Made by a program: the position numbers and the translations under genes
Notes under the pieces: model-generated
Told to the model about the DNA's origin: nothing
What the model saw: the letters and a program-made list of their open reading frames with translations, nothing else
The model's database searches: none
In this document: in pieces, positions 1,151 to 64,000 of the stretch
How the letters are laid out: every line of letters begins with the position of its first letter
Position numbering within the stretch: the stretch's first letter is position 1
Source of the DNA: a virus
Strand: one strand, 5' to 3'
Length of the DNA stretch: 64,000 nt
IMG/VR virus record: IMGVR_UViG_3300033121_000981
Location: 1 to 64,000 of that record

Positions 1151-1667
1151 TATATTCTTGATAGCTGACACGCATTTTGGGCACAGAGGAATTGTTGAAT
1201 TCTTACGAGCTGATGGTGTTACAAAAGAACGTCCTTGGTACAATGTAGAAGAAATGGATGAAGAGCTTATATCTAATTGGAACAGAGTTGTACGGCCTAA
1301 AGATAAAGTGTATCATCTAGGTGATGTTGTGATTAATAGAAGAGCTCTTCCTACTGTTGGTAGACTTAATGGGGAGAAAATACTAATCAAAGGAAATCAT
1401 GATTTATTCAAACCAGAAGAATATCTAAAATATTTCAAGGATGTTCGTGGAAGTCATAAACTAGATAATTACATCCTAACACATATACCAATTCATCCTG
1501 ACAGTTTAGCTCGGTGGACTAATGGAAACATTCATGGTCATCTACATTTTAATAATGTAAGGCTCCCAGATGGCAGCATCGATAAAAGATATTTTTGCAT
1601 TAGTGTGGAACAAATAAATTATACACCAATAGCTTTTGAAGAACTTAAAACAATTCTTAAATATTAA
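1143..1667 (+). CDS. calcineurin-like metallophosphoesterase
   Basis: motifs DTHFG, GDVV..R and GNHD typical of the metallophosphatase fold. Confidence 0.8.
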   Translation: MTNIFLIADTHFGHRGIVEFLRADGVTKERPWYNVEEMDEELISNWNRVVRPKDKVYHLGDVVINRRALPTVGRLNGEKILIKGNHDLFKPEEYLKYFKDVRGSHKLDNYILTHIPIHPDSLARWTNGNIHGHLHFNNVRLPDGSIDKRYFCISVEQINYTPIAFEELKTILKY

Positions 1668-2482: not shown

Positions 2483-2503
2483 AGAGGGCCGTATGAGCCC
2501 TCT
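2483..2503. terminator. hairpin AGAGGGC-N7-GCCCTCT between convergent genes; probable bidirectional terminator
   Basis: 7-bp GC-rich stem, T-run on the minus-strand side. Confidence 0.4.
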
Positions 2504-2512
2504 AATACGTTT

Positions 2513-3151
2513 CTATAGGCATTTATATTGTTCTTGCTTTGTATTATATTCTAATTCGTATTTATCTAAACTATCTTTCCATTGTTTAATATTCCTAACT
2601 ACTGATGTCATAGGAAGAGAATATTTATCTGCAATAGCTTCGTATCCAAAACCGTTTACCCTATCCTCACACATAGCTCTCATTATTTCTGGTGTTATTT
2701 TAGGAGGACGACCAAACAGCTTCCCTTCAGCCTTAGCTCTAGCTAATCCAGAGTTAGTACGCTCAATAATAATATTACGTTCTAGCTCCGCAGCAGCAGC
2801 CATTACAGTAATAATCATTTTACCCATCGAACTAGTAAGGTCAATACCATCAAATTGTAATACTCTAAGTTTAATCTTGAGACGTTTAAACTCATCGATA
2901 GTGTGCAAAATATCTGAAGCTGTACGTCCAAGCCTGTCTACCATTGTACATATGCAAGTGTCTCCAGCCTTAGCTTTCTCCATCATGGATGAGAAAGCAG
3001 GGCGTTCTAAAGCTTTAATGGAACCTGAAACACCCTCTTCAGCATACCATTCATCTACAGCATACCCTGCATTCGTAATTTCTAATTTTTGATTTTCTGT
3101 AGTTTGACCTTTTTTAGTTGTGCTGACGCGCAGGTATGCAAATATTGTCAT
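2513..3151 (-). CDS. small serine recombinase (resolvase/invertase family) with C-terminal HTH
   Basis: N-terminal YLRVSTxxQ catalytic-serine motif, DRLGR, 212 aa. Confidence 0.9.
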   Translation of the reverse strand: MTIFAYLRVSTTKKGQTTENQKLEITNAGYAVDEWYAEEGVSGSIKALERPAFSSMMEKAKAGDTCICTMVDRLGRTASDILHTIDEFKRLKIKLRVLQFDGIDLTSSMGKMIITVMAAAAELERNIIIERTNSGLARAKAEGKLFGRPPKITPEIMRAMCEDRVNGFGYEAIADKYSLPMTSVVRNIKQWKDSLDKYELEYNTKQEQYKCL

Positions 3152-3182
3152 GGAGTATTCCTATACATGTTTTATTCTGAAG

Positions 3183-3217
3183 ACATAATTGTACGAATAA
3201 TAGAATATTTCGTCAAT
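3183..3217 (-). promoter_or_regulatory. sigma70-like promoter for the recombinase gene, TTGACG-17-TACAAT
   Basis: read on minus strand; a 14-bp palindrome TTTTTTATAAAAAA lies just upstream at 3229-3242. Confidence 0.4.
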
Positions 3218-3336
3218 ATTTTTTATAAAAAATTTATTTTTAATTTCACATTTTTATTATTTTGCAGAAATTGCCATATAGAAAATATCGATAAGCTCAT
3301 AAATTTTCTTGTGGATAATTATAAATAGCTAATTTT

Positions 3337-3352
3337 GCTTAATTTTTGTGCA
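3337..3352. repeat. direct repeat GCTTAATTTTTGTGCA, copy 1
   Basis: exact 16-mer repeated at 3718-3733. Confidence 0.6.
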
Positions 3353-3717
3353 GGATATACTTTTGTGTTGTTTTTTGGAAATAACGCTGCAAAGTCGTCT
3401 GCGGGGCTTAATAGGGTTTTCGGGGTTGATTTTAGACTTTTATATACAGCAAAATATCTAGGTTGTCAAGTGTTTTCTTTCACTTTTAACGATTATTTTG
3501 CTTGTAAGTGGTTGATTTACAACACTTTACCGAAAACAACCGTTTGTGGTAATGATTTAAAGTAACTTTTGATTGAATTTGTAAGGTATACCTATGTCAG
3601 AATGCTTCATAGGCTTTATTAGAGCGCTTACAGTGAATTATTTTGTGTTGGTAATAGGAGGGTACGCTTAAATGTAAAAACGCTGCTATGAGGCTGTAAT
3701 TGATTTCTATTAGAAGT

Positions 3718-3774
3718 GCTTAATTTTTGTGCAACTTGTAAAATTACAAGTAATTATTGTATCCTGTAGGATAC
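3718..3774. repeat. direct repeat copy 2 followed by two palindromes (CTTGTAAAATTACAAG and GTATCCTGTAGGATAC)
   Basis: seen directly; possible recombinase or regulator binding sites. Confidence 0.5.
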
Positions 3775-4060
3775 AGAAGAGAAGCACGCATGAAAACGTC
3801 GCCACTATTAGTTATCATATATGCTCTTATACACTACATATAGTAACGCATACACAAAATACTACTAGATATAGTGATATCACATATAATATGCAGTAAC
3901 ATTCATTAGCACTATACAAGCATTGGACACAACATCGGACACATGCACATATAACACACATCTTAACATACATATTCTTACGCATTATCATATAAACGAT
4001 ACCCTTACCTATAATTATTAGTATGTTATAAATGACGCGCAGATCGTATATGAATAGCAA

Positions 4061-4100
4061 TAAAAAAAAATACCCGCACAAGGCGGGCTATTCTTCTTTT
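4061..4100. terminator. intrinsic terminator, A9-CCCGC-acaag-GCGGG-T-rich; strongest on the minus strand
   Basis: GC hairpin flanked by A9 and TTCTTCTTTT. Confidence 0.6.
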
Positions 4101-4237
4101 ATTCTTTCTACAATATACCTATACGCGCCATATTCAGCATCTAATTTATCAGCTTGCAATGATGCTTTAAGCCTTGTTTTATATATTGTCTTTAGATAGT
4201 GTTTTATCTTAGTGTCATAAATTCTATACATATAGGA

Positions 4238-4531
4238 TTATTCTTCCCAGTATCGAATAGTCATAACATTGCCTAATTCTTCATAATCCGTCACAAGCTT
4301 ACAATAATATTCTTGACAATATTCTTTTAATTGTCCTCTATTAACTTTTACTGAATTATTATAAACATGCGCTTGCAGCATCTTAAACGCTTCTTTAGTA
4401 GTAAGATTTTGATCGAAGTAAAAGTTACTATTAAGCAACTCTAACCTGTCTTTATCATAGCATATAAAATAACGCTCTATATTGTTTTTCATAATTACCC
4501 CATAAATAACACATAAACAAATCCAGCGCAA
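4238..4531 (-). CDS. hypothetical early protein
   Basis: ORF track; start probably at internal Met MKNNIERY. Confidence 0.5.
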   Translation of the reverse strand: MRWICLCVIYGVIMKNNIERYFICYDKDRLELLNSNFYFDQNLTTKEAFKMLQAHVYNNSVKVNRGQLKEYCQEYYCKLVTDYEELGNVMTIRYWEE

Positions 4532-4944: not shown

Positions 4945-5151
4945 TTAATTGTCACAGTAGATATCTTCAAAATAAGATTTTGCTTTTTCTACAATATCTT
5001 TCATATCTTTAGTTCTGTTCTCATACTGCATTAAAGCAAAATTTACAGAAATGACTTCAGGCTTTTGTTGAAAATCATGCCAAGATTTTGGGTGCAACTT
5101 TTGAGAATTTGATTTTATTGTCTCTCTGACTAATTTTTGAGTGATTTTCAT
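4945..5151 (-). CDS. hypothetical early protein
   Basis: ORF track; promoter cassette copy just upstream. Confidence 0.5.
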   Translation of the reverse strand: MKITQKLVRETIKSNSQKLHPKSWHDFQQKPEVISVNFALMQYENRTKDMKDIVEKAKSYFEDIYCDN

Positions 5152-5176
5152 TTTAAATTTACCTTTCTGATTAATT

Positions 5177-5257
5177 TAAACAATATAGATAGTATATACA
5201 CGTTTATTTATTAAATCAAGAATTATTTTCACTTTTTAAAATTGCTTCTAAATCAAT
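5177..5257. repeat. about 80-bp direct repeat, left copy flanking the GC-rich island; includes a duplicated 3' end of gene 5793-6230 (..LEAILKSENNS)
   Basis: about 93 percent identical to 5753-5834. Confidence 0.7.
5191..5219 (-). promoter_or_regulatory. early promoter cassette copy 1, TTGATT-17-TATACT
   Basis: one of five near-identical cassettes ATATACACGTTTATTTAATAAATCAAG. Confidence 0.6.
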
Positions 5258-5406
5258 AATTTTCATTTTATAATCCTTTTATAAGTTAATTAATAAAACA
5301 ATATCAAACAAATTTACGCCAACCATTTTTACAACGTTTGTCTCGTTTAAATCCAAGTTTTGCAGCTGCTATGATGACCAGTGCATCAAATTCAGGGAGT
5401 GGCGGT

Positions 5407-5619
5407 TCATGCTTGCACCACCTTCGCAAAGTTCGGCACGGTGCCTGGAACAAACCCAGCGACACGGAAAGAATGAAAACCGGCGGCACTTGCGGCGGCT
5501 TTCACCTTTTCGATGTTTTTGGCGGCTTTGTCAGTCACGGGGAAGCAAGCGAGTAAATCTTCCATATAGTCGCGGGTTTCGCCGCGCTTCAGTCCATAAA
5601 TGAGAATTTCGGGTTTCAT
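5407..5619 (-). CDS. moron ORF in GC-rich island, 70 aa; the open frame continues in a second frame (5304-5489), so possibly a frameshifted or longer gene
   Basis: GC-rich third codon positions unlike the rest of the phage; RBS AAGGA; own consensus promoter upstream. Confidence 0.5.
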   Translation of the reverse strand: MKPEILIYGLKRGETRDYMEDLLACFPVTDKAAKNIEKVKAAASAAGFHSFRVAGFVPGTVPNFAKVVQA

Positions 5620-5658
5620 GTGTCAGTCCTTTACGTTTACGGGTTATTGATAGGTTCT

Positions 5659-5686
5659 ATTATAACACAGTGGGTTTAATTGTCAA
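5659..5686 (-). promoter_or_regulatory. consensus sigma70 promoter TTGACA-16-TGtTATAAT inside the GC-rich island
   Basis: perfect -35 and extended -10, read on minus strand, about 40 nt upstream of the island ORF. Confidence 0.6.
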
Positions 5687-5752
5687 GCACTTTTTGACAC
5701 ACTGGGTAAAATTCCCAACTTGTACGCAAAAATCGCGGCGTCCCGTTCTTCT

Positions 5753-5834
5753 TTAAACAATATAACTATTATATACACGTTTATTTAATAAATCAAGAAT
5801 TATTTTCACTTTTTAAAATTGCTTCTAAATCGAT
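5753..5834. repeat. about 80-bp direct repeat, right copy flanking the GC-rich island; contains early promoter copy 2 (TTGATT-17-TATAAT at 5768-5796)
   Basis: matches 5177-5257. Confidence 0.7.
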
Positions 5835-6182
5835 ATCTGTTGTTATCATCTCAACATGCATTATGTATAATGTACACCACAAATCAATCTCACCTTTTTC
5901 GAATTTGTTGTAATTTTCCGCGGAAATTTTATGACACTCAAATGCTTTTAATTGTAGCACCTGAACATCGATTCTACCTAAATCATCGCACGAGTTTAAC
6001 AATATATCATCACGCGTACAATTAAATTCTTCTTGCAATTTTTGTAATAATTTTGTTATTGTGCTTGCCTTTATGTCAATCTTTCCCCATTCATGTAATG
6101 TTTCACCGTAGCAACCTTCCAAATATTTATCTTTTTCTGAGATAGCATGGTAATCATTTATTACATAATATTTAATAGCCAT
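5793..6182 (-). CDS. hypothetical early protein, about 130 aa from Met MAIKYY
   Basis: ORF track; stop codon overlaps the -35 of promoter copy 2. Confidence 0.55.
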   Translation of the reverse strand: MAIKYYVINDYHAISEKDKYLEGCYGETLHEWGKIDIKASTITKLLQKLQEEFNCTRDDILLNSCDDLGRIDVQVLQLKAFECHKISAENYNKFEKGEIDLWCTLYIMHVEMITTDIDLEAILKSENNS

Positions 6183-6810: not shown

Positions 6811-6846
6811 TTCATTACCTTTCTAATTAATATAAACAATATAGAT

Positions 6847-6875
6847 AGTATATACACGTTTATTTAATAAATCAA
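6847..6875 (-). promoter_or_regulatory. early promoter cassette copy 3, TTGATT-17-TATACT
   Basis: sequence match to the other copies. Confidence 0.6.
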
Positions 6876-7109
6876 GTATTTTCTTTATAAATTCCTTTAT
6901 CATTCTCATTTTTCCATTCCTTGCAAAAAAGCCTTGACAAACTTTTAAATTGCACTATTCCAGAATGTTTTGTGATGACAACATAATAAGCACCTTGTTT
7001 TTTAATTTCGTAGAATTCTTTATTGTCAAGCATTTTCTTTTCCTAAATTTACATTATTTAATACTAAAATTCGATAATTTTTCGCAGTAATTCTGCGCGT
7101 GTTTTTGTT

Positions 7110-8182: not shown

Positions 8183-8215
8183 TCTTATATCCTCTTAAAA
8201 TTAAACAATACAAAC

Positions 8216-8244
8216 ATTATATACACTTTTATTTATTTTGTAAA
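8216..8244 (-). promoter_or_regulatory. early promoter cassette copy 4, TTTACA-17-TATAAT
   Basis: sequence match. Confidence 0.55.
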
Positions 8245-8786
8245 GAATTATTAACATAATATAAAGCATCCCCATTTTGTTTTACAGCTTCTAAACATAT
8301 TTCTTCTGTTTGTTCCTTAACATACCATAAAGCATAACCATTTTGTTTAACAGCTGCTAAACATATTTCTTCTGTTTGTTCCTTAACATACCATAAAGCA
8401 TAACCATTTTGTTTAACAGCTGCTAAACATATTTCTTCTGTTTGTTCCTTAACATCCTTTAAAGCATAACCGTTTTGTTTTACAGCTTCTAAACATATTT
8501 CTTCTGTTTGTTCCTTAACATGCTCTAAAGCATAACCGTTTTGTTTTACAGCTTCTAAACATATTTCTTCTGTTTGTTCCTTGACATCCTTTAAAGCATA
8601 ACCATTTCGTTTAACAGCTTCTAAACATATTTCTTCTGTTTGTTCCTTAACACACTCTAAAGCATATCCGTTTTGTCTAACAGCTGCTAAACATATTTCT
8701 TCTGTTTGATTCTCAACATACTTTAAAGCAAACCCCTCTTGTTTAACAGCTGCTAAAGCCTCTTGTTCATTAGTGAAATATTTCAT
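8229..8786 (-). CDS. DUF4116-type tandem-repeat protein, about 8 x 20-aa repeats (EQTEEICLEAVKQNGYALKDVK)
   Basis: obvious 20-aa periodicity; 60-bp DNA repeats. Confidence 0.8.
   Translation of the reverse strand: MKYFTNEQEALAAVKQEGFALKYVENQTEEICLAAVRQNGYALECVKEQTEEICLEAVKRNGYALKDVKEQTEEICLEAVKQNGYALEHVKEQTEEICLEAVKQNGYALKDVKEQTEEICLAAVKQNGYALWYVKEQTEEICLAAVKQNGYALWYVKEQTEEICLEAVKQNGDALYYVNNSLQNK
8270..8770. repeat. about 8 tandem copies of a 60-bp unit, coding and in frame, inside CDS 8229-8786
   Basis: near-identical copies, e.g. TTGTTCCTTAACATACCATAAAGCATAACCATTTTGTTTAACAGCTGCTAAACATATTTCTTCTG. Confidence 0.8.
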
Positions 8787-8822
8787 TTTTTAACATTCCC
8801 GTTTAAATTAAACAACACAAGT

Positions 8823-8851
8823 ATTATATACACGTTTATTTAATAAATCAA
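8823..8851 (-). promoter_or_regulatory. early promoter cassette copy 5, TTGATT-17-TATAAT
   Basis: sequence match. Confidence 0.6.
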
Positions 8852-9267
8852 GCATTATTCAATTTATTTCTATGTTTATGAGAAGCACCAATTTTAGCCG
8901 CGCACATTGTCACAGCTGCTACAGTGCGCCCCAATTGTCTAGCACACTCAACCCTGCCAAGAATTTTATAATTTCCTTTCAAGAAAATTATCTCATCATC
9001 TTTCCATTTTGTGCTATTTGTTAAATTAACAAAATTTTGACATTTTCCTGCTTTTCGCATCGCATTGCGCTGGTTTGTTAATTTTTCAATCGCGCCAATT
9101 TGCATTAAATAATGTGGCAAATTATAACTAGAAAGCCAATTTTCTAGCATACTGATATCGGTGCGTAATAATTTAGCAGCGTGCTCATTGCTGTATTCAA
9201 TTTCAGAAATTAATTTTTGAAGCTTTTTACTAAAATCTATCATTTCATTTTCCTTTGTTTTGTCCAA
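8848..9267 (-). CDS. hypothetical protein, possible C-terminal HTH
   Basis: ORF track. Confidence 0.5.
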   Translation of the reverse strand: MDKTKENEMIDFSKKLQKLISEIEYSNEHAAKLLRTDISMLENWLSSYNLPHYLMQIGAIEKLTNQRNAMRKAGKCQNFVNLTNSTKWKDDEIIFLKGNYKILGRVECARQLGRTVAAVTMCAAKIGASHKHRNKLNNA

Positions 9268-10349: not shown

Positions 10350-11483
10350 TTACTTAATATCAAAACGTTTATCTAGTGCTTTAGTATAATCTTGTAATAG
10401 ATATATTTTATATTTTTCTTTACAATCATTCCAAGATGCTTTGACATTAATGTTCTTCTTTTTAGCATTAAACAAAACAGCAGAATAACGGAGTTTACAG
10501 AACTCGTCGGCTAGCTCTTTTTGTGTTGAACAGGTGTTGTTGAGATAATTATATGTACTAGCCATAGATTCCATAAGATAATTGAATCCTCTTATATATG
10601 GCTCAAACAAAAACCTATCGTCTGGAAAATAATTTAAATACTCTTCATGTTCTCCTGAAATAACTAATTGGCATATCCTTTTCGGTGAAATACCTTCACC
10701 CTTCATATGATGTACAGCTACATAAGTTGGACTTTTTATTTTACAGATAGGAACACCATTTTGATATAACACATACCCTTCATCAAGGTTTTTTAATGTT
10801 TTAACATGATTTAAACATTCGTCTATTGATTTAAATATGTATTGTTTTGGGATAATAGCGCCTAAATCTTCCCAGATAAAATCTAAATTCCAATATTCCC
10901 CAGTTTTTATATCTCTGGATGTCAAATAGTATAAACTACACCCATCGTACCGTTTAATCACTCTATTTTCTGGACTAACTACTTCCAATATGTGAGTATC
11001 TTTCTTTGAAAAATGCTTTTCACAGCTTTCTTGGAACTGTTTCTCAGACCAATTTAAAGATTTCAATACAAGCTCTTTATAAGTAATATCAAATCCATTT
11101 ACCGTTGTCTCTGCAAAAGCTGTACCTCTTGTGGATATTCTCCACTCATTGCCCCAATGGTAGATTTTAATTAAACTTCCGTCAATTTTCTCAAAACACT
11201 TTGTATTAGAAAAATATAACCCATTTAATGTCTCTGATTGTTCCCCATAATTAAAGAACCTATCAAACCCTCTTGATACAACATTATAATTTTTACTGTC
11301 AAGAATAAGCCCCCTACATTCCATAACAATTGGATGTGTTTTTGGGCTGTGAATTTGATCATAATTTAAAACAAGCAAACCCTCATCATATTGTTTCACT
11401 TTAATATGAAAGTTATCCTCTAAGGTTTTTATTCCATGTTCTTTTAAATATTCAATTGTTTTCATGTATTTTGAGCTTTCCAT
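10350..11483 (-). CDS. rnlA: RNA ligase 1 (T4 Rnl1-like)
   Basis: motifs ECRG, FFNYGE, KIDGSL (nucleotidyl-transferase motif I) and EGYV...CKIKS match T4 Rnl1 in order; 377 aa against 374 aa. Confidence 0.88.
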   Translation of the reverse strand: MESSKYMKTIEYLKEHGIKTLEDNFHIKVKQYDEGLLVLNYDQIHSPKTHPIVMECRGLILDSKNYNVVSRGFDRFFNYGEQSETLNGLYFSNTKCFEKIDGSLIKIYHWGNEWRISTRGTAFAETTVNGFDITYKELVLKSLNWSEKQFQESCEKHFSKKDTHILEVVSPENRVIKRYDGCSLYYLTSRDIKTGEYWNLDFIWEDLGAIIPKQYIFKSIDECLNHVKTLKNLDEGYVLYQNGVPICKIKSPTYVAVHHMKGEGISPKRICQLVISGEHEEYLNYFPDDRFLFEPYIRGFNYLMESMASTYNYLNNTCSTQKELADEFCKLRYSAVLFNAKKKNINVKASWNDCKEKYKIYLLQDYTKALDKRFDIK

Positions 11484-11772: not shown

Positions 11773-12021
11773 TTACTGGGAAGATAGAATTATTTGCCCT
11801 ACCTTTATATTTTTCTTATCCACACCTCCAAGAATAGATAGTTCTCTTCTTGAAAGAAATTTTGTCATCTCAATATTCTTATAAACCAAACCCGCTCTAA
11901 TTTCATCTTCTGCTCCGTCTTCCCTAATAATTTTTACATTTTTATTATTGTCATACGAAATAATGGAAATTTTTTCTGGTGTTTCTGAATATAGATTTGT
12001 GTAATAAGTTTTCTTATTCAT
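11773..12021 (-). CDS. hypothetical protein
   Basis: ORF track. Confidence 0.45.
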   Translation of the reverse strand: MNKKTYYTNLYSETPEKISIISYDNNKNVKIIREDGAEDEIRAGLVYKNIEMTKFLSRRELSILGGVDKKNIKVGQIILSSQ

Positions 12022-13103
12022 ATTTTGCTTGCCCTATTTAGTTTATTAACAATTTCTATTACAAACATTTTTGCATACGGATTCTCAACCACTTTATTAT
12101 ATCTCATAAAATGTTGGTTAAAATCACATTTAGCATCACTTACGGAAATTCCAAGAGTACTGTGACGTTGTCCATTCTGTGTGATAGAGTAAACAAGGTA
12201 TCTTCCATTTTCTACCTGTGGAATGTAGCTGGCAACACAATGATGCATAGTCATACCTTCTTCTACAATAGCTAAAGGTGACTTCAATAGATGAGCTTCA
12301 AAACCATTCTCATCTTGAAAATATGTAGATGTTAAACTCTTAAGACAATTTATTTCTTCATTAGAAAATCTTCTTTTATTGTACTCTTTAGAACATATGT
12401 CATGCTCTTCTTTTATTCTTCTATAGCTTAGTTTATACAACCTTTCTGTATCTCTCCCAAGTAATCTGAAAAGGTTTAAAGTATCAGTAAATATTTGTTT
12501 TTCTTCGTAAAATAACTTACCCCACTTACCTTTACAATGTAGACTAATCCATTTTAAAACTACAATATCAACATCATAATTATTTTTCAAAACAGTGGTA
12601 GGTAAGTAGCAGTATTCGTTTAGGAATTTAAAACTACTGCCACACCTTGTATTACTTAAATACGCTGACATTAGCACCTTGTTTTTATTTAAAGAGTTTT
12701 TAGCAATAATTTTCCAGTTTGGGATACTTTCTTTTAACTCTTTAGGGCTTTTGCCAGTAATTGCAATAATAGGTAGTACGTTGAAGAGACCGTCGCTGTA
12801 CGCTTCTTTAAGTGTTGAATAATTTTTATGGACACTTTCCAGTAATAAATTATCCATTTTATACTTGTTCCAACTAATCTTTCTAATTATATCAATGTGA
12901 GGAACTACAAAAACTTTATATTGAAGTTTTTTAAAAGCTGCAAAAGCTCGATAATGTTCCCTTGAGATAGGTAAACTTAGGCCCATACCATAAACCCATG
13001 TTATGCAACTCTTAGTATTTTGATAGTTCGTGAATTCATGAATAGTTTTTCCATCTTGTAAAACTACAATACTTCTTCCTCTTACATCAAATGTTATTTT
13101 CAT
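12018..13103 (-). CDS. hypothetical protein with conserved C-terminal MHHCVASY motif (possibly PcfJ-like)
   Basis: ORF track; motif recalled from memory only. Confidence 0.55.
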   Translation of the reverse strand: MKITFDVRGRSIVVLQDGKTIHEFTNYQNTKSCITWVYGMGLSLPISREHYRAFAAFKKLQYKVFVVPHIDIIRKISWNKYKMDNLLLESVHKNYSTLKEAYSDGLFNVLPIIAITGKSPKELKESIPNWKIIAKNSLNKNKVLMSAYLSNTRCGSSFKFLNEYCYLPTTVLKNNYDVDIVVLKWISLHCKGKWGKLFYEEKQIFTDTLNLFRLLGRDTERLYKLSYRRIKEEHDICSKEYNKRRFSNEEINCLKSLTSTYFQDENGFEAHLLKSPLAIVEEGMTMHHCVASYIPQVENGRYLVYSITQNGQRHSTLGISVSDAKCDFNQHFMRYNKVVENPYAKMFVIEIVNKLNRASKI

Positions 13104-13374
13104 ATTTTGCTTTCAATTCTTTAAGTAACCGTCGTTCACGTACCTCTTCAATACTTTTCTTATTTTTCTCAACTCTTAATCTATGTATGTATTCCTCATC
13201 AGTCTCTAATACATCCCAATGCACGGGAAAATAGAAAGAATGGTTATCACTATCTCCACCAATTATGGCAGAGTCTGGAATATTATAAGTAGCTAACATC
13301 CTTTTAAATTCCCCAACGCTCATATTGCTACACTCTATACTCTCATATTTATTTATATATTTCTTTAGCATCAT
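13087..13374 (-). CDS. hypothetical protein
   Basis: ORF track. Confidence 0.5.
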   Translation of the reverse strand: MMLKKYINKYESIECSNMSVGEFKRMLATYNIPDSAIIGGDSDNHSFYFPVHWDVLETDEEYIHRLRVEKNKKSIEEVRERRLLKELKAKYENNI

Positions 13375-13398
13375 ACTCTCCTTTTGTAAGAAAATAGT

Positions 13399-13737
13399 TT
13401 ATATATTAACAAACAAACTATCCACTGTCCATTTTTTCTTCCTTAATATTTCAGCTATTTTTACACTACATTTTCTATATAATTTTAGAATGGCTACACA
13501 TTCAGAATATTCTATATCATAAATACACGCCAATTCTTTAACGGTAAGGGTAGAAAATGTTGTCAATAATAAATATATTCCACTTTCTGAAATACGTGTT
13601 CCACTTTCTACCTCCTGTGCTATAATTTTACTCACCCATTTAGGCTTTAAACGTTGCCTGCATAAATATGTGTAAGAATATTTGTTGTCATATGTTTTAT
13701 GATGTGGGTTTGTTATTTTTGATTTTTTCATAAACAC
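13399..13737 (-). CDS. hypothetical protein, possible HTH regulator
   Basis: ORF track; first gene of the leftward unit at the divergent region. Confidence 0.5.
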   Translation of the reverse strand: MFMKKSKITNPHHKTYDNKYSYTYLCRQRLKPKWVSKIIAQEVESGTRISESGIYLLLTTFSTLTVKELACIYDIEYSECVAILKLYRKCSVKIAEILRKKKWTVDSLFVNI

Positions 13738-13960
13738 TTCTCCAAAAATACTTCCTAAAAGGGATAATTATAGCATGTTACCTACATTATATGAACAAGC
13801 ATTTGCAAAAATAACCAGAAACAAAGAGTTGGTAAGACTCTCTAAAGTTGCTTGTTTAAATTAAAACAAGCAAAAAGCTGTAAGGTATGCTATAGTGAAA
13901 GCTGCTGCATATATAAGGTATTTGATTGAAAACAATTAATAATATTTAAAGGATAAAATT

Positions 13961-14209
13961 ATGAATATATTTAAAATTTGTGGTTATTCAACGCACGCAG
14001 TAGTTGTACCTTCACAATCTCACTTAGGTAAAGCTAATATAAAATCTGTTAATCCAGAACAAGCACATTTGTTTCGCATGATAGATAGTCACGGTAAGTG
14101 TCAAGAAGTTGATATTAGAATGATGAATAGAATTGCTATGCAAAGAATTGAACAGCAGCGCAGAGATCGGATTCTTAGTACGTTTTTGCAGGGAATGAAT
14201 GATGAGTGA
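13961..14209 (+). CDS. hypothetical protein
   Basis: ORF track; first gene of the rightward unit. Confidence 0.45.
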   Translation: MNIFKICGYSTHAVVVPSQSHLGKANIKSVNPEQAHLFRMIDSHGKCQEVDIRMMNRIAMQRIEQQRRDRILSTFLQGMNDE

Positions 14210-15478: not shown

Positions 15479-16831
15479 ATGACACTATACCAACTTATCA
15501 CTTTAATCAGGGAAACACAAGGACACACAAATAAACTCACACTTATGCGTCAGCATAAAGATAATGAACTGTTTAAAAATTACATGCAAGCTGTGTATGA
15601 TCCCACTTTAAATTACTATCTTACTAAGCTTCCTAAGTATGATAAAACTCTAATAGAAAAAGAAGTTGCACTTGAGTTCACTCAAGATACTTTGAGTTCA
15701 TTAATGAAGCTTGCTACAAGACAAATTACAGGTAATAAGGCTAAACAATTTTTGTCCAAGTTACTATGTTATTTGAATGATGAAGGTAGGGAGCTAGTTG
15801 GGTATATTATCCGCAGGAATATAAATGGAAATGTCGGTGATGGTATGGTGCTTAAAGTATGGCCTGAGCTGTTCTTTATTCCTCCATATATGCGTTGTTC
15901 TTTATTGAATGAGAATACAAAGAAACATTTCTCTTCTTTGCCTAGATTTTATGTACAAGAAAAAGTGGATGGTTCTTTTATATACTTAATTGTGCCTGAA
16001 AACAGTCCATCAGAGGCTCTTACAAGAGCAGGAAATGTATATCCTCATTGGTTCTCTTCTATGTTAATTAAGGGTGAAAAAGTAAATCATTGGGGTAAAG
16101 TTCTAATTGGGGAATGTTTAGTTTACAACCAATTCAATATTTTGCTACCAAGACAAGAGGGTAATGGGGTTTTAAATAGTATTCTACATGGGGGATTAAA
16201 AGAGGAGTTTGAAAATTATAGATTTTTAATGGTAGTTTGGGATAAGGTTACTATAGATCAATTTTATAATGGTTACTCAAGTATAGCTTATAAGTTTAGG
16301 TTTGATGGGATTAGGCTTGGGGATAATCCTAATTTAATTAAAGTTAGTTCATATCAAACAGATAGTCTTGAAAAGGCTTTTAACATTTATTCTACATATA
16401 CTTCTTTAGGTAAAGAGGGTGTAGTTATTAAAGACCCTGACAGTGTTTGGAAAGACTACACATCACCTTATAATGTTAAATTAAAACTAACGTTTGAAAT
16501 AGATTTAGAGGTTATTTGCACATATGAAGGTCAAGGTAAAGCTGCTGGTATGTTAGGTGGATTAGTTGTACAATCAAAAGATGGTAGAGTAAACTGTTGT
16601 GTTGGGACAGGGTTTACTGATAAAATACGTAAAGAATTATGGAGCAGCAAAGAGGACATTATTGGTAAAATTGTCACAGTTAAAGCGAATGATGTTATAA
16701 CTGATAAAAACCAATGGAAAACTAAAAGCTTATTTCTACCAGTATTTGTAGAGTTACGTAATGATAAAACTGAGGCGGATAGCTTTGAGCATATTATGAA
16801 TCAATTAGAAGCTGCTAAACAAGGAAAATAA
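15479..16831 (+). CDS. ATP-dependent DNA ligase
   Basis: motif I KVDGSF, C-terminal OB-domain GTGFTD as in T7-type ligases, 450 aa. Confidence 0.8.
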   Translation: MTLYQLITLIRETQGHTNKLTLMRQHKDNELFKNYMQAVYDPTLNYYLTKLPKYDKTLIEKEVALEFTQDTLSSLMKLATRQITGNKAKQFLSKLLCYLNDEGRELVGYIIRRNINGNVGDGMVLKVWPELFFIPPYMRCSLLNENTKKHFSSLPRFYVQEKVDGSFIYLIVPENSPSEALTRAGNVYPHWFSSMLIKGEKVNHWGKVLIGECLVYNQFNILLPRQEGNGVLNSILHGGLKEEFENYRFLMVVWDKVTIDQFYNGYSSIAYKFRFDGIRLGDNPNLIKVSSYQTDSLEKAFNIYSTYTSLGKEGVVIKDPDSVWKDYTSPYNVKLKLTFEIDLEVICTYEGQGKAAGMLGGLVVQSKDGRVNCCVGTGFTDKIRKELWSSKEDIIGKIVTVKANDVITDKNQWKTKSLFLPVFVELRNDKTEADSFEHIMNQLEAAKQGK

Positions 16832-17046: not shown

Positions 17047-18039
17047 ATGAAGGGTACTATTAGAACTATGACAACATTTAAACCATATCCAAGTATTTCA
17101 CAATTCAGAAATGTTATTAAAAGGGTTGTAGATCAGGCTCAGTTTGTAGCAATAGCACCGCCAACACTTACATACAAAGGTACCGTAAAGCTACACGGAA
17201 CTAATGCCTGCATTCATAAAAGTAAACAAGGAGAATATTCTTTTCAATCAAGGAATAGACTTATTACTAAAGAATATGATAATTGTGGATTTGTTCATGA
17301 AATGTCTCAGAAACCTTTAAAGGAATTGTTTAAAGGTTTTGATGGAAAAGATGTTTACATATATGGAGAGTGGTGCGGAACAGGTATCCAAAAGAACGTA
17401 GCTATTTCACAGCTACCTAAAATGTTTGTAGTTTTTGAAGTAATTGTGGACGGTGTTAAACTTGTACAAATTGAAAATATTAAACTTCCAGAACATAGAA
17501 TTTTTAATGTAAATCAATTCCAAACATTTACCCTTGATATTGATTTTAACAATCCACAAAAGGTTCAAAATAAGTTGATTGAAATAACTACTCAAGTGGA
17601 ATCTAAATGCCCTGTAGCAGCTTTCTTTGGTGTAGAAGGGATTGGTGAAGGTGTTGTGTGGAGTCTTGCTGAAAGTTGCAGTAATTTTAAAATAGGTGAC
17701 AGCGAATTAACTTTCAAAGTGAAGGGAGAGGAACATTCAACAACTAAAGTAAAAACATTAGCTGCGGTTGATGTAGAACTTTTAAATTCTATTGCAGATT
17801 TTATTGATACTGCAGTTACAGAGCAAAGATTACAACAAGCTATCTCTTATATGAAAGAAATGCAGATTAGTATTGACAGTAAAAATACTGGAGAGTTTGT
17901 AAGGTGGGTTTATAGAGATATTATGAAGGAAGAGTCAGATGTGATTGATAGCTCAAACTTAGATACTAAAACGTTAGGATTTCATATTAGTAAACATGCT
18001 AAGTTTTGGTTCTTTAAATATTTGGAGCAAAGTAAATGA
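17047..18039 (+). CDS. RNA ligase 2 (T4 Rnl2-like)
   Basis: motif I KLHGTN, GEWCGTGIQKNV matches T4 Rnl2 GEFAGPGIQKNV; 330 aa against 334 aa. Confidence 0.85.
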   Translation: MKGTIRTMTTFKPYPSISQFRNVIKRVVDQAQFVAIAPPTLTYKGTVKLHGTNACIHKSKQGEYSFQSRNRLITKEYDNCGFVHEMSQKPLKELFKGFDGKDVYIYGEWCGTGIQKNVAISQLPKMFVVFEVIVDGVKLVQIENIKLPEHRIFNVNQFQTFTLDIDFNNPQKVQNKLIEITTQVESKCPVAAFFGVEGIGEGVVWSLAESCSNFKIGDSELTFKVKGEEHSTTKVKTLAAVDVELLNSIADFIDTAVTEQRLQQAISYMKEMQISIDSKNTGEFVRWVYRDIMKEESDVIDSSNLDTKTLGFHISKHAKFWFFKYLEQSK

Positions 18040-61415: not shown

Positions 61416-62111
61416 TTACGCCTGAGTTGCAACACGAATACCAAGTGCGTCTAATTGGGCATAAGCAGCTGTTAGAGCAGTACCTGTTACAGAAGCACCA
61501 AAAGTAAGTTGTGATTTATTTACAATTGCTGGGCCTTTAGTGATTGCTAGAACAACTAAATCTGTATTAAGTGTTGTTGCAGATGATTGTGACAATCCAA
61601 GAGCATCAGCGATATAAATAGCAGCAGCAACTTGAGAACCATCTGTTGCGGATGCTTCTACAATTTTGTATTTTTTAGTACCTGTTACAGTGATTGGGAT
61701 ATAATCACCTACAACAAAATCTGTAGAGCCGTCTGCTAAGGTAAAAGCAAAGCCTGCTTGAGAGAATGCTGTACCAACTTGACCAATACCGATTGCTTGT
61801 CCTTGAGGGTCAAGCAAAACAAAATCACCAGCATTGCTTACAGTTTTAGTAATTTTTAAAGTATATGTACCAATTTGTAGGCCCAAAGAGGCTGACATTG
61901 TAATAGAACCCATAGTTCCATTACCTGTACCTACAGTTGTTCCTGCGGTTGCTGTAGGGCTTGCTAGATATGAACCAAGAACAGTACCAACTTGCAGAGT
62001 AGTAGCAGTACCGTTAAAAGTGATATTATCGCGGCAAAAGCCGGAAGCTGGATCGTATTCAGATTTTACAACGTTACCAAAACGGGTACTTTCAGTTGCA
62101 ATTGTGGTCAT
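61416..62111 (-). CDS. head decoration protein (putative; Thr/Gly/Ala-rich)
   Basis: position between scaffold and capsid. Confidence 0.45.
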   Translation of the reverse strand: MTTIATESTRFGNVVKSEYDPASGFCRDNITFNGTATTLQVGTVLGSYLASPTATAGTTVGTGNGTMGSITMSASLGLQIGTYTLKITKTVSNAGDFVLLDPQGQAIGIGQVGTAFSQAGFAFTLADGSTDFVVGDYIPITVTGTKKYKIVEASATDGSQVAAAIYIADALGLSQSSATTLNTDLVVLAITKGPAIVNKSQLTFGASVTGTALTAAYAQLDALGIRVATQA

Positions 62112-62656: not shown

Positions 62657-63518
62657 ATTGAATTCCTGTATTTGATGATATATAATTCATAAAATCGCTT
62701 CTGGTCATTATTTTATTAATGAATCCTACTTTCAATGCTTCTTTAGCAGAATAAGTTGAAGCTTCTGTAGATTTAATAGAATCTGTAGATAATCCTGTAT
62801 AATTTGAGACGTGCATACAAAAATCGTCATATAGAATATCTACTTTTGTTTGCAAATCTTTGATAAAAGTTGGCTTGAAACTGCCATCATCTTCGTATGG
62901 AATTTTGTTTTTTCCAGCAGAGATATAGATAGGTTTAATTCCATCTTGCTTCATCTGTTCAGAATAATCACAAAAAGAAACTAATACTCCAATTGATCCT
63001 ATATCTGAATCTGGATTAGATATGACTTCATCAGCAACACAAGCAATAGCATAAGCTGCGCTACAGCAACATCCGTCTACATAAGCTATAAGTTGAACTT
63101 TTGCATCATCACACAAAGCCCTAATATCATTAGCAGTTTCAAATGCGCCATATGACTCACCACCACCACTATCGATCCATAATACAATTGAAGAAACTCC
63201 TTCTTCAATCATATCTTCTGCTTTATCTAGTATTTCCTGATAAGAGCAACCACCGCATTCAGCTTCCCATCCAGTTGCTTTATACGTAAGTGGGCCACTT
63301 ATTTCAATAATTCCACAACTACCCGAAGGATCATCATCCCCCATCTCAGACTCACTATCATTTCCTCCATAAACTTTTCTATTAGGAAGATTCATTAAAC
63401 CAATATTCCTATCGTTTAGGTATGATAAAATATTGGAAAATAGGGGTTGAGAAATTAAGTGTGGTGTACCGTGGAGTTTTTGTGTTAATCTGAATAAACT
63501 ATGAGGCATTGTCAGCAT
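62649..63518 (-). CDS. prohead protease (ClpP/S49 family)
   Basis: SIVLWIDSGGGES and catalytic-serine region GCCCSAAY. Confidence 0.8.
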   Translation of the reverse strand: MLTMPHSLFRLTQKLHGTPHLISQPLFSNILSYLNDRNIGLMNLPNRKVYGGNDSESEMGDDDPSGSCGIIEISGPLTYKATGWEAECGGCSYQEILDKAEDMIEEGVSSIVLWIDSGGGESYGAFETANDIRALCDDAKVQLIAYVDGCCCSAAYAIACVADEVISNPDSDIGSIGVLVSFCDYSEQMKQDGIKPIYISAGKNKIPYEDDGSFKPTFIKDLQTKVDILYDDFCMHVSNYTGLSTDSIKSTEASTYSAKEALKVGFINKIMTRSDFMNYISSNTGIQYA

Positions 63519-64000
63519 TCTGTGTTGAAGAGTCTTTGTTACCAAATGGATTAGTCCTAGTTCCATCACCTGTTGGTGAGGCCATACCTTTACCAGAACT
63601 AGATTGATAACCAGCCATCTCTTCTTTATTAATCGGCATGTCAGATGGTTCTACAGCAAACCCGCCAACTTCTAATACTCTGTTTACTACTGACCTATTA
63701 ACAGGTAATAATCCTACAGAGGCAGTTCTTTGAACTAATTTACCAAACTCATCCATAGATACACCAGAGATGTTTTTATGTACAAATTTGGGGAGTTCTG
63801 TATCTGTCCACCCATTTAATCTAAATAAATGTGGTATTAAGTCATGATTGAGAACACTTGAAATTTCTTGTAAACGCCTATCAACAGCCAATGTTAAAAT
63901 ATTAGTATCACCATCCTGTAAACTAAAAGAGCCTGCAGAATCCATGCCCATTTTAAGTACACCACAAGATAGAGCATCTAAAATATTACCTTCTAGCCGC
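63499..64000 (-). CDS. portal protein, C-terminal part (gene continues beyond the window)
   Basis: position upstream of the protease; truncated by the window end. Confidence 0.55.
   Translation of the reverse strand, partial: RLEGNILDALSCGVLKMGMDSAGSFSLQDGDTNILTLAVDRRLQEISSVLNHDLIPHLFRLNGWTDTELPKFVHKNISGVSMDEFGKLVQRTASVGLLPVNRSVVNRVLEVGGFAVEPSDMPINKEEMAGYQSSSGKGMASPTGDGTRTNPFGNKDSSTQNADNAS

Follow-up and report, generated by a model that had tools for sequence, protein, structure and literature searches.

A conserved small serine recombinase and a single hix-like candidate site in an origin-like module of an uncultured phage clade

What might a small serine recombinase do in a phage of virulent-type gene content, with no tail-fibre genes beside it? 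This question is raised by a stretch of 64,000 nucleotides from the IMG/VR virus record IMGVR_UViG_3300033121_000981 (positions 1 to 64,000; hereafter the window), in which a gene at 2513–3151 on the minus strand encodes a 212-amino-acid enzyme of the resolvase/invertase family. The initial annotation of this gene offered a local inversion or deletion switch, the resolution of concatemers and a leftover of a mobile element as possible explanations. Judging from comparison with related loci, the enzyme and the non-coding module that adjoins its gene form a conserved pair, and the module contains one 26-bp palindrome that resembles the crossover sites of DNA invertases. We tentatively suggest that this pair is a single-site monomerising system beside a probable replication origin, which would resolve genome multimers or circularise redundant ends, a reading that we consider plausible while holding it short of probable.

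The recombinase and its conserved locus

The assignment of the protein to the resolvase/invertase family is borne out by profiles, alignments and structure prediction. Residues 4–144 match the Pfam Resolvase domain (PF00239, E 6.6e-38), and the protein matches PHROG 125, "DNA invertase" (E 6e-52), while no NCBIfam equivalog scores above its cut-off. The nearest solved structures, about equally close, are gamma-delta resolvase (E 5e-23) and Gin (E 2e-22), with which the YLRVS, DRLGR and FGRPPK motifs align residue by residue. The serine of YLRVS (S10) aligns to S10 of gamma-delta resolvase, and the catalytic cluster R8, D67, R68 and R71 of that enzyme is matched by R8, D72, R73 and R76; all of these residues, together with Y6 and E124, are invariant across 31 homologues. 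The AlphaFold model (predicted local distance difference test score, pLDDT, 88) consists of the catalytic domain, a long E-helix (residues 108–141), the GRPP arm and a three-helix helix-turn-helix (HTH) domain (154–165, 170–176 and 181–191), followed by an additional, family-specific C-terminal helix (195–211) to which the family-specific invariant residues W191, Y198, E201 and Q208 are assigned. The best Foldseek matches are gamma-delta/Tn3 resolvase (E 7e-13), Sin and Gin, with full-length alignments to the gamma-delta and Tn3 resolvase–DNA complexes. At the sequence level, the enzyme is 42% identical to Pin-like phage invertases, its GRPPK arm is Gin-like, and small serine recombinases of Ralstonia phages also appear among its database matches. 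With 212 amino acids it does not have the C-terminal recombinase and zinc-ribbon domains of the large serine integrases (>300 amino acids), and integrase models match its catalytic domain only.

A homologue search with the recombinase returned 4,785 matches at E ≤ 1e-10. The best 120 of these are full length and 47–70% identical, plus one near-duplicate at 97%, and many of them lie on metagenomic phage contigs of ~75–94 kb. Twenty-odd homologue loci were fetched for comparison (labelled L001, L003, L006 and so on). In most of them the same order is found: an array of small early genes, a non-coding gap, the recombinase and sometimes a few variable small open reading frames (ORFs). The recombinase is convergent with a block that encodes ClpP, PhoH and a phosphoesterase of the Metallophos family; beyond this block come the terminase and portal genes. 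Among 24 contigs of one phage species (P0024) and 20 of another (P0091), only a single arrangement was seen around the gene. Two independent metagenome contigs, L001 and L002, encode a protein identical to that of the window, any differences in the gene being synonymous in both. The gene differs from that of L001 at five nucleotides, all of them in third codon positions and all synonymous, whereas the adjoining non-coding DNA is 93.5% identical (6.5% differing). The recombinase gene is real and intact, and, since only synonymous changes are found beside non-coding DNA that has changed by 6.5%, it is functional and under purifying selection. The gene had been called an orphan and a possible remnant of a mobile element; neither label holds, because its position is conserved across a large phage clade and its sequence is under purifying selection.

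Outside phages, we found no homologue with at least 50% identity among 185,579 bacterial and archaeal species genomes (one per species), where the best match has 45% identity and lies on an 8.5-kb contig of a metagenome-assembled genome. The closest cultured relative of the phage is Pseudomonas phage vB_PsaM_M1 (89 kb, classified in Ounavirinae), which has no recombinase gene and whose family-A DNA polymerase shares 42% identity with the one in the window. A 213-amino-acid ORF beside an 870-bp gap in vB_PsaM_M1 was considered as a homologue and proved to be unrelated.

We also looked for a fixed partner gene 3′ of the recombinase and rejected the idea, as the small ORFs at that position differ among genomes. 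One to five small same-strand ORFs follow the gene in L200, L010, L011, L012, L013, L014, L006 and L127, and there are none in the window or in L003. These ORFs are mostly unrelated among genomes, and the position looks like a hotspot of gene gain and loss.

A single candidate crossover site in an origin-like module

The candidate dimer-binding and crossover site is an imperfect 26-bp palindrome at 3527–3552, TTACCGAAAACA AC CGTTTGTGGTAA, with a 12-2-12 layout and a single copy in the window. Equivalent single palindromes are present in L003, L006, L009, L010, L011, L013, L014, L015 and L200. A weight matrix built from the palindromes of six loci found one outlier site in each of four loci that had played no part in its construction (L006, 23.0; L009, 24.8; L200, 25.5; L010, 15.3). 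When the window was shuffled 20 times, the top score per shuffle was between 6 and 18, so that the L010 site taken alone is marginal and not above chance. The cultured relative vB_PsaM_M1, which lacks the recombinase, also has no such palindrome (best matrix score 10.1).

The half-site consensus, nT(A/C)CC(R)nWA(A)C(R), is close to that of the Din-family invertases, whose sites include hixL (TTCTTGAAAACC AA GGTTTTTGATAA) and pixR (TTCTCCCAAACC AA CGTTTATGAAAA) (PMC3241671). Compared with these published sites, the half-sites of the palindrome share 8–9 of 12 positions and the 12-2-12 layout, and the likeness is clearest in the inner bases (AAAC|nn|GTTT), as seen when the right half CGTTTGTGGTAA is set against CGTTTATGAAAA of pixR and GGTTTTTGATAA of hix. 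The central dinucleotide is AC, TC, AG or CT and is non-palindromic in 10 of 10 sites, for which the probability by chance is ~6%; a non-palindromic dinucleotide is what the crossover core of a serine recombinase needs. In addition, the recognition helix of the enzyme covaries with the outer part of the half-site. Helices with PRNT/SI(A/H)RN go with (A/G)T(C/A)CC, those with P(M/L)T(S/T)VVRN (window and L003) with TTACC, and PRNTLSAN (L015) with TGTCC; the L015 half-site, TGTCCGATA, also fits TGTCYNNTA, which we take to be the resolvase half-site consensus. The loci with the most divergent recognition helices (L016, L017, L127 and L208) give no matrix match, and candidate diverged palindromes were recognised by eye in L016 and L208. 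From this resemblance and covariation, we infer that a dimer of the recombinase binds the palindrome. Between palindrome and gene there are 330–380 bp in L003, L015 and the window, but up to 2.1–8.3 kb in other genomes.

How many such sites does a genome contain? Within the 64 kb of the window, the palindrome stands alone with a score of 30.0, the runner-up reaching 9.2. L003 runs from the module through the terminase and portal genes to the protease gene, which matches the far end of the window (62775–63999), so that the two together cover almost the whole genome map, and no second site was found in L003 by the matrix scan. For a further relative, IMGVR_UViG_3300045391_001467, we rebuilt 75,546 of 81,754 bp (92%) from six overlapping loci that joined with no conflict; this sequence has one site at 31.3, with the next candidate at 7.1 and shuffle maxima of 5.6 to 16.4 (20 shuffles). 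No second full site was found in any of the relative loci, each covering ±10 kb. Together with the single arrangements described above, these counts mean that two-site inversion of the Gin/Hin type is not supported, and the local inversion or deletion switch suggested earlier falls with it.

Several other candidates for additional sites were rejected. An isolated half-site at 62074–62087 lies in the coding region of a head gene and its partner half is random; by our estimate, chance alone would produce ~0.3 matches to its 10-mer core. A half-site scan of the non-coding DNA in six loci found one inverted pair per locus, and not the three subsites of a res-like array. The only long inverted pairs found in relatives, in L006 (9878–9905 and 17954–17981) and L015 (11235 and 18266), turned out to be upstream elements or consensus promoters of convergent units, with no dyad symmetry. 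As a separate observation, L014 has two isolated half-sites in its early region (5210–5221 and 1386–1397, minus strand; matrix scores 14.5 and 14.0), whose partner halves are unmatched and whose adjacent dinucleotides are AA and AT, compared with AC in its main site. These could be chance matches or monomer-binding sites.

The palindrome is embedded in a gene-free stretch of 936 bp upstream of the recombinase (3152–4087). The initial annotation had described 1.1 kb of repeat-rich non-coding DNA here (3151–4240); the gene-free stretch is real, but it ends at 4087, as the ORF at 4088–4231 counts as a gene in the L001 annotation and has a terminator after it. The term "repeat-rich" is too strong for a stretch in which a 17-nt direct repeat, a 12-nt motif present twice and three short palindromes were found. 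The terminator (4072–4088, minus strand), found by a terminator scan, is an intrinsic one that ends the leftward early-gene array and marks the far edge of the module. When the window is compared with its 70%-identical relative L003, islands of conservation stand out in otherwise diverged non-coding DNA. One of them is a 56-bp element with two boxes, GATATTTTrC-N38-(G)TTAAGCMCC, at 3403–3458 on the strand of the recombinase (minus), 68 bp from the palindrome. Regular-expression and profile searches found it in 10 loci (E 1e-6 to 2e-12) plus two weak matches, always on the same side of the palindrome, at 57–204 bp in nine loci and at a similar distance in L006. For this element, RNAalifold finds no base pairs and no consensus RNA fold, and there is no Rfam family. 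A search for structured RNA across the non-coding DNA likewise gave no Rfam family at gathering score and chance-level matches at relaxed thresholds. The two boxes, judged by eye, do not fit the consensus for Fis, the protein that binds two sites in the recombinational enhancer (about 60 bp) of the Din invertases. The element may be an accessory, enhancer-like site or a part of the origin.

Other features of the module recall replication origins. A perfect DnaA box (TTATCCACA) lies at 3310–3318 on the minus strand, and L003 has one at the equivalent position. In other related modules the same perfect box occurs six times in L127, twice in L010 and once, beside the site, in L006. The six boxes of L127 (TGTGGATAA) fall within 145 bp (4210–4354), ~0.8 kb upstream of its recombinase; nothing else hints so strongly that the module might serve as an origin dependent on DnaA, or as a DnaA sink. 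The 17-nt direct repeat TGCTTAATTTTTGTGCA (TGC-N11-GCA) occurs at 3336–3352 and 3717–3733 (plus strand), and both copies are retained in L001. Two adjacent short palindromes, AACTTGTAA-AA-TTACAAGTA and TTGTATCCT-GT-AGGATACAG, occupy 3733–3776, and next to them, at ~3790, the GC skew changes from ~+0.3 to ~−0.4 within non-coding DNA (window 3700–4000). An iteron-like motif, ACTAnATATAGT, is present twice, 31 bp apart, in G-poor DNA at 3833–3875; it also occurs in the equivalent regions of L001 (two copies), L127 (two copies), L006 and L020. Iterons are otherwise genome-specific: L200 repeats a GGATATGGGATTCTA-like motif (two exact copies), and tandem repeats of 52 and 50 nt are found in L006 and L009, respectively. 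By these sequence criteria, the module at 3152–4087 is conserved and origin-like and is a probable replication or control centre.

Two loci depart from the usual arrangement. The block between recombinase and PhoH has the reverse of its usual orientation in L006, where 8.3 kb separate the module from the gene; in L016, the module is downstream of the recombinase gene and in the opposite orientation. The unit of iterons, palindrome and element is intact in both, so the breakpoints lie elsewhere than at the palindrome, and the changes are rearrangements of the ordinary evolutionary kind. They do show that the enzyme must act on the module in trans. We also considered assembly breaks near the site as evidence of rearrangement and rejected them, since none is a junction and all have mundane causes. 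L002 ends at window position 3542, inside the palindrome, and L001 differs at 3543, which indicates an assembly bubble from a single-nucleotide polymorphism between strains; the shared start of L003–L005 and several P0024 contigs falls in variable iteron DNA; and the gap in L001 consists of scaffold Ns corresponding to window 3946–4065.

Between the module and the coding sequence, a sigma-70-like promoter (TTGACG-17-TACAAT; 3188–3216, minus strand; 10 of 12 consensus matches) lies directly upstream of the recombinase and is conserved in L001. Promoters of the same type were recognised by eye directly upstream of the recombinase in L006 and L127. The promoter originally attributed to the gene is present, but it is not statistically distinctive, as the window contains 18 promoter-like matches compared with 18.8 expected from shuffles. 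At the other end of the gene, a probable terminator hairpin read from the sequence (AGAGGGC-N7-GCCCTCT followed by TTTT; 2483–2503, minus strand) is common to the recombinase gene and the convergent plus-strand genes; the terminator scan did not list it, its T-run being too short.

Possible functions of the recombinase

In the mechanism that we propose, a dimer of the recombinase would bind the single palindrome. Wherever two directly repeated copies of the site came to lie on one molecule, two dimers could bring them into synapsis, cleave both at the non-palindromic dinucleotide in the centre and rotate their subunits to exchange the strands, and unit-length circles would be released. Such direct repeats could arise from circular dimers or multimers formed by early theta-type replication at the adjacent origin-like region; head-to-tail concatemers and terminal redundancy are other possible sources. 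Direct terminal repeats are reported for Felixounavirus coliphages (PMC11737134). Of the roles listed in the initial annotation, the resolution of concatemers (or other multimers) is the only one to survive, and it is still conjectural. A broader proposal, which we advance with considerable doubt, is that the system is a serine-recombinase counterpart of Cre/lox and a conserved core module of a widespread, uncultured and virulent-looking clade of large phages (contigs of ~75–94 kb). Here, a hix-like site beside the origin, the accessory element with its two boxes and a recombinase extended by a further C-terminal helix would together control genome topology, by circularising incoming DNA or by resolving replication multimers.

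Several points weigh against a monomerising role. The pairing of recombinase and palindrome rests on resemblance and covariation, and six loci of the family have no matrix match, among them L020 as well as L012, where the available upstream DNA is too short. The single-site count covers the 64-kb window and 92% of the contig of one relative. The argument from linkage is weakened by L006 and L016, in which module and gene are either apart or differently oriented, although this is compatible with action in trans. The GC-skew flip at ~3790 has the polarity of a terminus, and not of an origin, and the number of DnaA boxes ranges from 0 to 6 among relatives. No recombination product (dimer junction, excised circle or alternative arrangement) was seen among the contigs compared. 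Finally, a phage that encodes a polymerase and a helicase of its own usually packages its DNA from concatemers and is not known to need multimer resolution.

Could the enzyme instead be an invertase of the Din type, which flips a promoter or a large segment between two sites, the second being too diverged or outside the sequenced part? The layout of the palindrome, the 42% identity to Pin-like invertases and the Gin-like GRPPK arm all agree with this, and a ~56-bp element 57–204 bp from the site recalls the 60-bp enhancer ~100 bp from hix. The half-site at 62074–62087 is strong, has the same central GT and is in inverted orientation, and the L006 and L016 lineages have inversions near the recombinase gene. 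The breakpoints of those inversions, however, lie outside the intact unit of site and element and hence were not made at the site, the half-site is within coding sequence with a partner that looks random, and the two boxes, judged by eye, do not fit the Fis consensus. A second full site was found neither in the window, where the next candidate (9.2) is below the shuffle maxima, nor in the relative loci or the rebuilt contig, and one arrangement was seen throughout the contigs of the P0024 and P0091 species. The neighbours of the recombinase are the phosphoesterase gene, small early genes and non-coding DNA, and the structural genes, with a tail module that includes a 1911-amino-acid tape measure, are at 42–64 kb of the window; as the recombinase is not beside tail-fibre genes, a fibre switch of the Gin/Cin type is unlikely, as had been surmised. 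We consider inversion in any form to be unlikely here. A somewhat different use of the same palindrome would be as the attP of a small serine integrase of the phiRSM kind, with the phage integrating or persisting in a host absent from genome databases. A single simple site per genome does resemble an attP, and the Ralstonia phage enzymes are among the database matches. By contrast, the absence of any relative with at least 50% identity from the 185,579 species genomes gives no sign of integrated copies, with the proviso that the hosts may be unsampled; the central dinucleotide varies among close relatives (AC, TC, AG, CT), so that each would need a different attB; and, in agreement with the initial annotation, no integrase or repressor gene was found among 41 window proteins scanned, nor any Rep or partition (Par) gene. 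The same proteins include a family-A polymerase (PolA), a DnaB-like helicase, ThyX, a dNMP kinase, RNA and DNA ligases and other virulent-type functions. An integrase role thus seems improbable to us.

It is also conceivable, at a similarly low level of probability, that the protein is mainly a DNA-binding regulator of the origin or of neighbouring promoters, in the way that Tn3 resolvase represses tnpA and tnpR, with recombination incidental or lost. One dimer site in a promoter-rich, origin-like region would suit this role, and a promoter-like sequence (TTGACA-17-TATATA) overlaps the 56-bp element downstream of the site in the window and in L003. Yet the catalytic residues, including the Ser10 nucleophile, are invariant in the 31 homologues, which would be unexpected if only DNA binding were selected, and the distance from site to gene, a few hundred base pairs in three genomes, reaches several kilobases elsewhere. 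Still less can be said for a TnpR-like resolvase that was left behind by a transposon or some other mobile element and now has no function in the phage. In favour of this explanation, the recombinase is 46% identical to plasmid "recombinase family" proteins that lie beside IS26 and IS1. Against it, there is no transposase-like ORF within 10 kb of the recombinase, there are no flanking long inverted repeats and no three-subsite res-like array, the position is conserved across the clade at 47–70% protein identity, and the changes between strains are synonymous only. This explanation is already largely refuted, and we regard it as very improbable.

If the single-site monomerising system is real, these phages manage their own genome topology by site-specific recombination, a role documented mainly for P1 Cre/lox and for plasmids, and phages that were thought to need no site-specific recombination would be using it. 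In routine annotation, the small serine recombinases of phages receive the name "DNA invertase" and are taken to flip tail-fibre genes, or else they are dismissed as prophage or transposon debris. While the protein family is well known, its clade-wide pairing, in virulent-type phages, with a single hix-like site in an origin-like module appears to be undescribed, as do the extra C-terminal helix and the conserved two-box element that are part of this pairing; in the searchable literature, we found nothing relevant on serine recombinases in Felix-O1-like or virulent phages. The recombinase and site would also make a compact pair (212 amino acids, 26 bp), with natural co-variants of helix and site that are possibly useful for engineering. 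If the proposed role is wrong, the palindrome, the 56-bp element, the DnaA boxes and the iterons still mark the place where replication or control is probably centred in phages of this unstudied clade.

Genome context and comparison with known systems

The window has ~32% G+C and no tRNA genes, whereas tRNA clusters are found in relatives. No near-identical relative of the window was found among 50,697 GenBank phage records, and exact-protein look-ups for the rest of the phage genome led to short contigs only. The gene order PhoH-ClpP-...-TerL-portal-S49 protease-decoration-capsid is common to this phage group and vB_PsaM_M1. In addition to the replication and nucleotide-metabolism proteins named above, the window encodes a MazG-like protein, an HNH endonuclease and a cell-wall hydrolase. 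Its gene content looks virulent-type, and the description "apparently lytic" is a fair one; the label "T7-replicon" is only loosely right, in that a family-A polymerase and a DnaB-like helicase are present. The closest cultured relative is classified in Ounavirinae. An Rnl1-type and an Rnl2-type RNA ligase (10350–11483 and 17047–18039), an ATP-dependent DNA ligase (15479–16831) and a PcfJ-like protein (12018–13103) suggest an RNA-repair toolkit against host defences that cleave tRNA. Near the terminase region, two relatives carry group I introns (L010, 19723–19945, Rfam 86 bits; L014, 15858–16068, 61 bits).

Other features were observed in the early region. Five copies of an 84-nt element, 64–94% identical, at 5175–5258, 5752–5835, 6831–6914, 8200–8283 and 8807–8890, sit upstream of successive small minus-strand genes, and their minus strand carries TTGATT-N17-TATACT; they resemble copies of one strong early promoter, each followed by a common leader. 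An in-frame 66-nt tandem repeat (8251–8757; 7.7 copies, 91% matches) lies inside the ORF at 8229–8786, whose protein consists almost wholly of DUF4116 repeats (Pfam E 1e-56). Strains also differ by an indel, with ~800 bp at window 4945–5753 corresponding to ~310 bp at 746–1056 of L001. The extra DNA of the window holds a G+C-rich stretch at ~5300–5620 (ORF 5407–5619) within a region of 30% G+C, and this stretch may have been acquired recently by insertion. Another long gap with few genes, at 13104–14198, marks the divergence of the leftward early genes and the rightward replication genes and holds a 26-nt palindrome (13848–13873). In the same gap, the 86 nt at 14055–14140 are 83% identical to L003 3201–3286, which is in a different genomic context.

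Among known recombination systems, the Tn3/gamma-delta resolvases provide the best sequence and fold matches to the enzyme, and in both cases the site is upstream of the gene. Their res consists of three dimer-binding subsites within about 114 bp; here, there is one dimer site, and there are no transposase and no transposon ends. The integrase of the Ralstonia phage phiRSM is likewise a resolvase-sized serine recombinase that uses a single phage site. However, phiRSM is a temperate filamentous phage, which integrates at a tRNA gene by means of this small serine integrase, whereas the present phage is a large tailed one of virulent-type gene content, with no integrated copies among the 185,579 species genomes.

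The Din invertases (Hin/hix, Gin/gix, Cin/cix and Pin/pix) share with our system an enzyme of ~200 amino acids with a GRPP minor-groove arm and a C-terminal HTH, a 26-bp site composed of a 12-bp half, a 2-bp core and a 12-bp half, and an element of accessory size, which here is 57–204 bp away. In the Hin system, the sites are 26 bp long and a 60-bp enhancer is ~100 bp away (PMC3798978). The differences are that one site is present here and not an inverted pair, with no invertible segment or tail-fibre genes nearby; that the core is AC, TC, AG or CT, compared with AA or GA in the Din sites; that the enzyme has the extra conserved C-terminal helix (W191, Y198, E201 and Q208); and that the two-box element is outside the recombinase gene and, judged by eye, does not follow the Fis consensus.

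In functional terms, the analogues are Cre/loxP of phage P1 and the multimer-resolution systems of plasmids (ResD/rfsF of F and ParA-res of RK2), which are found beside origins. These systems have one simple site per replicon, adjoining replication functions, and a recombinase that is encoded by the same replicon and acts in trans, and they produce monomer circles from multimers or from molecules with terminal redundancy. Unlike the serine recombinase described here, Cre and ResD belong to the tyrosine recombinases; moreover, P1 and such plasmids carry partition genes and are maintained stably as replicons, whereas the scanned window proteins included none for maintenance or lysogeny. The analogy is one of function only, and it lies in a single simple site served by a recombinase that acts in trans, as the 8.3 kb between module and gene in L006 would suggest.

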